A stretch of 64,000 bases of DNA from Escherichia coli (GTDB taxonomy: Bacteria > Pseudomonadota > Gammaproteobacteria > Enterobacterales > Enterobacteriaceae): the NCBI RefSeq assembly GCF_003334305.1, contig NZ_QOWS01000005.1. The stretch is one strand, 5' to 3'. The position numbers and the translations under genes are program-made. Shown here in pieces: positions 34,934 to 37,236 of this stretch. The stretch's first letter is position 1. Each line of letters opens with the position of its first letter. A model generated the notes under the pieces. The model worked only from the letters and a program-made list of their open reading frames with translations. It did no database searches and was not told the origin of the DNA.

Positions 34934-35859
34934 TCTGCAACATACAGGTGCAGCCGTGGAATGATCAAACGAAGCGGCTGCGCCTGTGGTTTATAACGGT
35001 GCTGCACATTGTCGGCATCGTAATTTAACAACTCACCAACGTCCGGCACGCCCGCGCCATTATCCCGATTAATCAGTGCAATCAGTGGTGTAGGGCAGGC
35101 GTGTTGGACTTGTTTTTGATCTCCTTTGTACCAGACGCGGGCAATCGGCTGCACCTTCACCGGACGTTTGATTTTTAACTTCGCGTTCTGTGGCAGGGCA
35201 GCGATATCCTGATACTCTCGCTCCAGTTTTCTTTGCCACTCCTCGCGCGTCCACGGTGCGACACTGCGTGGTGATTTCAGGCTTTTTTCCAGCTGTGCCA
35301 GGACTTCATCACGATGCAAATTCTTAATGATATGTTTATTAGCCCAACCAAAGCGTAAAGTGGCGGGGTCGTGCAGAACGGTGAGCGTGCGGTAAGCATT
35401 AAGGGTGATCAGCCCCGGCAAATGACGATGCACCCATTCAAAACGTGCCGCGGTGGGGAGTTCTGATTCAACCGTGACGATATGCTCGAACGTGGTCTTG
35501 AGTTTATTGATGTGCTGAATATGACTGACCAACGCTGCTTGCGAAAGGTTATCGACCTGGTAACACAACACGCCAGGCAGACGGACAGCGGCCTTGCTGC
35601 TGCGATTTTCGGACTGTTGTTGAATAAATAAATGGCGGAAATGACGCAACGCCAGCGACTGCGCGTCGTTGCCGAGATGTTGTTTTACCTCAATACGATT
35701 AAGCGGATTATGCTCATCCTCTTTTTTTACCTCCGGCAAAGAGAACACGCGGGCAACCAATAGCTTGTGTTGCTCAAGATGAGCGGCAAATGCAGCCAGC
35801 TCTTGTTCCATCTGGCGAAAGGTAGTGTTGAGTCGGTCTACGAGATCGTAACGCGCCAT
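34930..35859 (-). CDS. tus: DNA replication terminus site-binding protein Tus
   Basis: 309 aa from [14 protein letters not shown]; stop overlaps fumC stop (TTAA). Confidence 0.9.
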
Positions 35860-35865
35860 AATATT

Positions 35866-35892
35866 AACCACTTTAGTTACAACATCCTTAAC
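35866..35892 (-). other. replication terminator Ter site (TerB-like) in the tus promoter
   Basis: minus-strand AGGATGTTGTAACTAAAGT matches the Ter core consensus AGNATGTTGTAACTAA; about 10 bp upstream of the tus start. Confidence 0.85.
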
Positions 35893-35934
35893 TTATAGCA
35901 CAGTGGTGGTGACTTGACCATCGTGCGCGTAATG

Positions 35935-37236
35935 TCAGGCAGAGGTAAATTGCGGGATGTTATGCCATAACGGCCAGCTAAACGAGAAGCGGGCACCACC
36001 CAGTTCGCTGGTGTCACAATTAACCGTACCGCCCATTGCCAGTGCTATAGAGTGGACAATTGCCAGCCCCAGCCCGCAGCCGCCGGTTGAGCGATCCCGG
36101 CTGGGATCGAGGCGAACAAAAGGTTCAAAGATATGTTCGCGGTTTTCTGGGGCAATCCCTGGGCCATCATCCTCAACAATTAATGTCGCTCTATTCCCCG
36201 ACAGTAGCAGGCTGGTTTCAACCGTTGAATGGCAGTACCGCAGGGCGTTATTGAGCAAATTATCCAGCACGCGCTCCATTAAGCGCATATCCAACGCCGC
36301 ATAATGGCCTTGCACGAGCGTTTTTATCCGTACCGTTTTATCGGGCGTTACTGCCTGAATATCTGCCAGATGCGTTGACAGCCACAACGGCAGGTCTGGT
36401 TCGCTAAGATGAAGCTCGTTTTGTGGGCGATCGAGTCGGGCATAAGTCAGCAGCTCTTCAATTAAAGCTTCAAGTTGACTGATATCACGATTCAACGCCT
36501 GGGATTCGGCGGCGCTCAGGTTATCGCTCATCTCCAGTCGATAACGCAGGCGCACTAACGGTGTTCGCAGTTCGTGAGCGATACCGTCAATAAGCTGTTT
36601 TTTGCTGGCAATCAAGGCGTTGATATTGTCCGCCATCTGGTTAAATGCGATACCAAGTCGTTCAAAGCTCGAACCCTCATCAAAGTGGATACGCTCATTG
36701 AGATGCCCATCGCCAAATCGTTGCGCCGCTGCTTCCAGTTTTAACATATCCTGCCAGTGCGGACGCATCCAGATAAACACCGGAAAGGCGAGGGAAATAG
36801 CAATAAAAGCGATCAGGGCGATATCCAGCAATCGCATCTGATGGAGATAATAAAGATAAGGAACAGGACCAACTGCCAGCACGTAGTGGCTGCGCGGGAT
36901 ACGCTGCAAAAACGTGTACTGATCGTCCAGGGCGACAATTTCGCCGCCACGCAGTCGGTGCATGGAAATATCATCAAGATGGTATTTACTCAGTGGCTCG
37001 ACACGCAGATCGAAAGAGAGATTTAAATCCATCTCTTTCAGCGTCTTACCCCAGTCGTGTGGGGGGATCTCACGCAATTCGCTGCGCATCAGATACAGCG
37101 AACTGTTCATCAAATCATCCAGCGACTGTTTGCCCGCGCGTTCGGCGGTAAATTTGTACACCAACCCAACCAGCAGAGACATCACAAGGAAGCAGACAAA
37201 CAATAACAGGTAAAACTGGATAAACAGTTTTTTCAT
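35935..37236 (-). CDS. rstB: two-component sensor histidine kinase RstB
   Basis: 433-aa ORF with TM, HAMP, H-box (HELRTP) and ATPase motifs. Confidence 0.9.
   Translation of the reverse strand: MKKLFIQFYLLLFVCFLVMSLLVGLVYKFTAERAGKQSLDDLMNSSLYLMRSELREIPPHDWGKTLKEMDLNLSFDLRVEPLSKYHLDDISMHRLRGGEIVALDDQYTFLQRIPRSHYVLAVGPVPYLYYLHQMRLLDIALIAFIAISLAFPVFIWMRPHWQDMLKLEAAAQRFGDGHLNERIHFDEGSSFERLGIAFNQMADNINALIASKKQLIDGIAHELRTPLVRLRYRLEMSDNLSAAESQALNRDISQLEALIEELLTYARLDRPQNELHLSEPDLPLWLSTHLADIQAVTPDKTVRIKTLVQGHYAALDMRLMERVLDNLLNNALRYCHSTVETSLLLSGNRATLIVEDDGPGIAPENREHIFEPFVRLDPSRDRSTGGCGLGLAIVHSIALAMGGTVNCDTSELGGARFSFSWPLWHNIPQFTSA

Follow-up and report, generated by a model that had tools for sequence, protein, structure and literature searches.

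A Ter Site in the rstB-tus Spacer of Escherichia coli, Identified with High Confidence as a Rare Natural Allele of TerB

Results

The window, by which we mean the whole stretch of 64,000 nucleotides analyzed here from Escherichia coli contig NZ_QOWS01000005.1 (assembly GCF_003334305.1), contains in the spacer between rstB and tus a Ter site that we identify, from its sequence and position and with high confidence, as TerB, the chromosomal replication terminator that adjoins tus in E. coli. TerB itself is already known, and the window carries a rare but ordinary natural strain allele of it.

The Ter Site and the Flanking Genes

Read directly from the minus strand, from 35892 to 35870, the site was the 23-mer GTTAAGGATGTTGTAACTAAAGT, with Ter position 1 at 35892 and position 23 at 35870, and the surrounding minus strand read ...GCTATAAGTTAAGGATGTTGTAACTAAAGTGGTTAATATTATGGCG... 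An earlier note, made from the letters of the window, had reported a Ter-like site on this strand upstream of tus, and the string it quoted, AGGATGTTGTAACTAAAGT, was indeed found from 35888 to 35870, within the full 23-mer. The interval that it gave, 35859 to 35935, was wider than the site, as it starts at base 1 of the tus start codon, ends at the final base of the rstB stop codon, and so encloses the whole spacer, in which the site takes up only 23 bp. The features of the locus were as follows:

34930 to 35859, minus strand: tus coding sequence of 309 amino acids plus stop, an open reading frame with its ATG at 35859 to 35857, named tus by RefSeq in identical DNA
35870 to 35892, minus strand: TerB 23-mer GTTAAGGATGTTGTAACTAAAGT, read directly, identical to K-12 TerB at 20 of 23 positions and in the orthologous place
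35873 to 35888, minus strand: 16-nucleotide Ter consensus core AGGATGTTGTAACTAA, Ter positions 5 to 20, the sole exact match in the window
35887: GC(6) base pair, with G on the minus strand and C(6) on the plus strand, read from the sequence, the role of C(6) being taken from PMC4499146 and PMC8707476
35935 to 37236, minus strand: rstB coding sequence for a sensor kinase, from the open reading frame and the RefSeq annotation of identical DNA, the upstream neighbor of tus

The rstB gene ended with a TGA stop codon (35937 to 35935), and the spacer between the 2 genes was 75 bp long (35860 to 35934), reading ...TGTGCTATAAGTTAAGGATGTTGTAACTAAAGTGGTTAATATTATGGCGCGT... on the minus strand. Position 23 of the Ter site was located at -11 relative to the tus ATG, with the ten bases GGTTAATATT in between. 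The Tus protein was identical to that of K-12 except for I23A (codon 23), and matched the crystallized Tus chains in PDB entries 1ECR, 2EWJ, 2I05, and 2I06 with an E-value of 8e-208. It was also noted that the Tus accession WP_001295399.1 was common to AMSHJX01, which has the TerB allele of the window, and to EC45, which has the ATTAAGG allele. In the list of open reading frames, tus began with an in-frame GTG codon at 35871, four codons before the ATG and within the Ter site; since such a list takes the first start codon, we consider the GTG start to be an artefact, and RefSeq annotates the ATG.

A search of the 64 kb with the Ter consensus AGNATGTTGTAACTAA gave 1 exact match, at 35873 to 35888 on the minus strand, in agreement with the earlier note, which had read the site as a match to the core consensus. 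The chance expectation was estimated from 100 dinucleotide-preserving shuffles, none of which contained any match (0.00 expected). No further Ter sites were found in the 64-kb window, where the next-best candidates were two matches with 3 mismatches each, which is at chance level. The G-C pair at Ter position 6, which supplies the C(6) for the Tus-Ter lock and whose inspection had been recommended, was intact at 35887. Position 5 was an A and position 9 a T, and the site contained no substitution known to abolish locking or arrest.

Orthology with TerB in K-12

In reverse complement, the whole window was colinear with positions 1,720,388 to 1,656,118 of K-12 MG1655, with an identity of about 99%. 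The gene order was ...uidABC, ydgA, manA, fumA, fumC, tus, rstB, rstA, ydgC, folM... The 20 kb around the site (window 26000 to 46000) were 100% identical to several strains, such as A7 from orangutan, and the 401 bp around it (window 35700 to 36100) were present in 5,424 of 5,426 complete E. coli genomes, in every case between genes annotated as rstB and tus. The 401-bp query gave 5,428 matches in total, one of which was on a plasmid record.

The positional orthologue of the site is K-12 TerB, AATAAGTATGTTGTAACTAAAGT, at MG1655 1,684,226 to 1,684,248 on the tus strand, and the native TerB oligonucleotide printed in PMC4499146 matches this sequence. The rstB-tus spacers of the window and K-12 aligned base for base with no gaps, and the 2 sites share their locus, their strand relative to tus, their distance from the ATG, and their orientation towards TerC and dif. 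The suggestion in the earlier note that the site is TerB in the tus promoter was thus borne out by the same neighbors (rstB, tus, and fumC), the same 75-bp spacer, and the same distance to the ATG as in K-12. Alignment over the full 23 bp gave 20 identical positions, including G6, A5, T9, and all of positions 8 to 23, and the differences from K-12 were A to G at position 1, A to T at position 2, and T to G at position 7. Replacements of A5 (by C in TerF and TerH) and of T9 (by A in TerI and TerJ) have been held responsible for the weakness of those sites (PMC8707476). Binding of Tus at the orthologous position, which the note had named as a test, is on record for K-12, in which TerB is bound according to ChIP-seq (PMC8707476, PMC8347550).

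The note had remarked that the site differed from the textbook TerB by one or two flanking bases, through either memory error or strain variation. The allele counts below show that strain variation is the explanation and memory error is not; the differing bases are three in number, and position 7 is an N of the consensus rather than a flanking base. Compared with the sequences of TerA to TerJ, the site had 3 mismatches to TerB, 4 each to TerA and TerG, and 5 to TerC, where TerB and TerC alone were confirmed in genome sequence.

TerB Alleles in Complete E. coli Genomes

The diversity of the site was surveyed in 5,426 complete E. coli genomes with 34-mer queries in which every 28-base megablast seed was forced across positions 1, 2, and 7. 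The 4 alleles, which have an identical core, are given here by positions 1 to 7:

AATAAGT (K-12 type): 2,360 of 5,426 complete genomes
AATAAGG: 1,372 of 5,426 complete genomes
ATTAAGG (O157:H7/EC45 type): 1,262 of 5,426 complete genomes
GTTAAGG (window): 47 of 5,426 complete genomes

Together, these alleles accounted for 5,041 of the 5,426 genomes. The textbook K-12 23-mer is accordingly one of four natural alleles, present in about 43% of the complete genomes, which is relevant when genomes are searched with the K-12 TerB sequence. At least 2,681 of the 5,426 genomes had a TerB allele with G at position 7, and G7 is at least as common as the textbook T7. A T at position 2 was also common in E. 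coli, and a G at position 1 was rare (0.9%). The O157:H7/EC45-type allele, ATTAAGGATGTTGTAACTAAAGT, is identical to the window site at 22 of 23 positions, the sole difference being an A rather than a G at position 1.

Of the 5,424 genomes with the locus, about 380 matched none of the four 34-mer queries, so that additional minor alleles, or SNPs close to the site, must be present. When 11 genomes chosen to span the range of identities were aligned, variation within Ter was confined to positions 1, 2, and 7, and the remainder of the spacer contained 9 more variable columns. A review table lists 1 to 2 SNPs per 23 bp for terB (PMC10331603), compared with 3 between the window allele and K-12. A search of the supplement of Goodall et al. 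for TerB alleles gave no text matches.

In the river water isolate E. coli KTa005 (NZ_CP147084.1), the match to the window was broken at window position 35919. The extracted locus of this strain contained, at 1553 to 3060, an ISEcp1-family transposase and an MBL-fold hydrolase gene in the place of rstB, so that in KTa005 a transposition unit is located directly upstream of the tus promoter and TerB.

The tus Promoter

[quoted passage not shown] A stricter scan of the rstB-tus spacer for sigma-70 promoters identified no promoter in either the window or K-12, the last base of the candidate -10 element not being a T. In a looser scan of the spacer, the best sigma-70-like arrangement was TGGTCA-17-TG-C-TATAAG, which abuts TerB and consists of the following elements:

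35892 to 35900, minus strand: candidate extended -10 element TG-C-TATAAG of the tus promoter, predicted, with its last base being Ter position 1
35915 to 35920, minus strand: candidate -35 element TGGTCA, predicted, 17 nucleotides upstream of the candidate -10 element

The candidate -35 hexamer TGGTCA was invariant in the 11 aligned E. coli sequences, and the candidate -10 hexamer was conserved as TATAAA in the K-12, O157, and APEC alleles. Since the last base of the candidate -10 element is Ter position 1, a transcription start about 7 nucleotides downstream would fall inside the Tus footprint. The exact hexamers are ones that we infer from the sequence only. The strength of the promoter could differ between strains, as position 1 gives a candidate -10 element of TATAAA in K-12 and of TATAAG here.

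Orientation and Position in the Terminus Region

The position-1 end of a Ter site is its non-permissive face, where unwinding frees C(6) (PMC8707476, PMC4499146). In the window, position 1 of TerB was on the rstB side, at high coordinates, and position 23 was on the tus side. The location of the site relative to TerC and dif was determined in K-12 and in strain A7, which carries the allele of the window:

K-12: dif at 1,590,750, TerC at 1,609,157 (plus strand), TerB at 1,684,226 (plus strand), TerB to TerC 75.1 kb, TerB to dif 93.5 kb
Strain A7: dif at 2,407,197, TerC at 2,425,589 (plus strand), TerB at 2,486,938 (plus strand), TerB to TerC 61.3 kb, TerB to dif 79.7 kb

In both genomes, TerB and TerC turned position 1 towards dif, as a fork trap requires, and on this side of the trap TerC is the innermost barrier and TerB the next one. 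No dif site was found in the 64-kb window, even with 3 mismatches allowed, and by comparison with these genomes dif is probably located about 80 to 94 kb beyond the high-coordinate end of the window.

The GC skew of the plus strand was +0.021 over the window (z = 3.7), with values of +0.022 to the left of TerB and +0.019 to the right, and both KOPS motifs (GGGNAGGG) in the window were on the plus strand. From the positive skew and the plus-strand KOPS motifs, we conclude that the origin-derived fork travels towards increasing coordinates and first encounters the permissive face of TerB. The window is located on the counter-clockwise replichore, just outside TerC. The plus strand is the leading strand in normal replication, and the tus, rstB, and rstA genes are therefore oriented head-on to the usual fork.

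A change of sign in the GC skew near the site, which the earlier note had proposed to look for, was absent and is not to be expected in this window. Its placement of the window at the chromosome terminus is correct in the loose sense that the window belongs to the terminus region and lies outside TerC, but the terminus proper, with dif and the skew switch, is not part of the window. For the reading of the window, TerB provides orientation and is not a discovery.

MatS is the binding site of MatP. A perfect palindrome of the matS type, GTGACACTGTCAC, was observed at 16279 to 16291 (pattern GTGACNNNGTCAC, 0.02 expected), inside the ydgJ orthologue, and this single motif is consistent with a location of the window within the Ter macrodomain.

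A few other features of the window were recorded. A tandem repeat with a 96-bp unit, 4.4 copies, and 92% matches was present in rsxC (window 11297 to 11719), where the window has one 96-bp unit (32 codons) more than K-12 MG1655. Approximately 181 bp of the K-12 genome (about 1,691,371 to 1,691,552, between ydgA and uidC) were absent at window position 28719 to 28747 or thereabouts; 29 bp are shared by the two alignment blocks that meet there, and the difference may represent a small repeat-element indel. A scan of the window (1 to 64000) against Rfam gave no family at the gathering score.

Discussion

A Model for TerB in the Window

Binding by Tus, the mechanism of the lock, the pausing of forks, and autoregulation are all known from published work on the K-12 allele. 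In K-12, the ChIP-seq signal of Tus at TerB was 430x, among six strongly bound sites, and the half-life of the TerB lock was 4367 s (PMC8707476). [quoted passage not shown] The lock has been described as a mousetrap at C(6) that acts together with a dynamic clamp (PMC4499146). For the autoregulation of Tus via TerB, which is documented for K-12 only, PMC8347550 and PMC8707476 cite Roecklein 1991 and Natarajan 1991.

That the allele of the window acts like the K-12 allele in Tus binding, locking, pausing, and autoregulation is something we infer. Since the core is intact, the Tus protein is intact, and the orientation is conserved, we consider full TerB function of this allele to be highly probable. 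In the model that we propose, a Tus monomer, encoded just downstream, would bind TerB asymmetrically. Forks arriving from the position-23 side, that is, from the tus side at low coordinates, would displace Tus and pass, and this would be the course of the normal origin-derived fork of the replichore. Forks that come from the direction of TerC and dif would reach TerB at position 1, on its rstB side, and would unwind the DNA up to GC(6) at 35887, upon which the freed C(6) would dock in the cytosine pocket of Tus and the locked complex would arrest the helicase. On one arm of the fork trap, TerB would thus serve as a backup to TerC. As TerB lies directly against the likely -10 element and extends over the probable start of tus transcription, bound Tus would also repress tus, in a negative autoregulation.

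We consider it possible, if quite unlikely, that in the minor lineage with GTTAAGG, which combines TATAAG with a G7 beside the lock base, the set-point at which Tus regulates itself, or the efficiency with which TerB locks, differs measurably from K-12.

Alternative Explanations

Short motifs recur by chance, and the GTTGTAAC octamer was found four times in the window, compared with 1.65 expected, as would also be seen if the match to the Ter consensus were a chance resemblance without function. The octamers outside TerB, however, lacked Ter flanks, and an exact match over 16 nucleotides, at 0.00 expected, was located at the orthologous position beside tus, in a 401-bp region retained in all but 2 of the complete genomes and with the same core in each of the four alleles. 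Conservation and orthology together refute such a coincidence, the probability of which we regard as negligible. A more specific concern is that the substitutions at positions 1, 2, and 7 weaken Tus binding, the lock, or the tus promoter, and thereby result in a leaky TerB or an altered level of Tus. The rarity of the allele, with 47 carriers among 5,426 genomes, would agree with this, as would the location of position 7 beside the lock base C(6) and of position 1 at the downstream end of the candidate -10 element. Yet TerC, the terminator used most, also has G7, as do about half of the TerB alleles of E. coli; the sole private change is the A to G at position 1, which belongs to the variable outer portion of ter sites that is said to contribute little to binding (PMC8347550); and every core position is intact. 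We therefore think it very improbable that the allele is a weakened one.

The role of the site could also be narrower than a TerB acting both as terminator and as operator. On the way from dif to TerB, forks would first meet TerC, which has the same orientation and is 61 to 75 kb closer to dif, and would be stopped there, so that TerB might be essentially only the operator for tus autoregulation, with a vestigial role in the fork trap, and its conservation could be driven by its role in the promoter (PMC8347550). This is at odds with the report of Duggin and Bell, as cited in PMC10331603 and PMC8707476, that paused forks at terB are second only to those at terC in wild-type K-12, and with the retention of the orientation that a fork trap requires. 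An operator without a role in fork arrest thus appears unlikely to us, and we favor a TerB that would serve in both functions.

Comparison with Other Ter Sites and Fork Traps

Within E. coli, one of the known sites closest to TerB is TerC, which has the same orientation and is located on the same arm of the fork trap. The TerC sequence (ATATAGGATGTTGTAACTAATAT in K-12 and ACATAGGATG... in strain A7) shares with the window site the run GGATGTTGTAACTAA at positions 6 to 20, including the G7 that TerC has in both K-12 and A7, whereas the flanks of the 2 sites differ. TerC is located in the yneE-uxaB spacer, nearer to dif by 61 to 75 kb, and has no association with tus. A literature search for the TerC 23-mer as text gave no match, and TerC was confirmed directly in the K-12 sequence.

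A comparison of the tus loci in other species has reportedly been published by Toft et al. in 2021. In the type I fork traps of Edwardsiella tarda, Dickeya, Yersinia, and Proteus, the Ter1 site is located just upstream of the tus ATG, where it both blocks forks and represses tus, and it shows 74% to 83% identity to TerB of E. coli and retains C(6) (PMC8707476). The arrangement beside tus is thus similar to that described here, but the tus-adjacent Ter1 is the innermost barrier in the type I fork traps, whereas in E. coli the innermost barrier is TerC.
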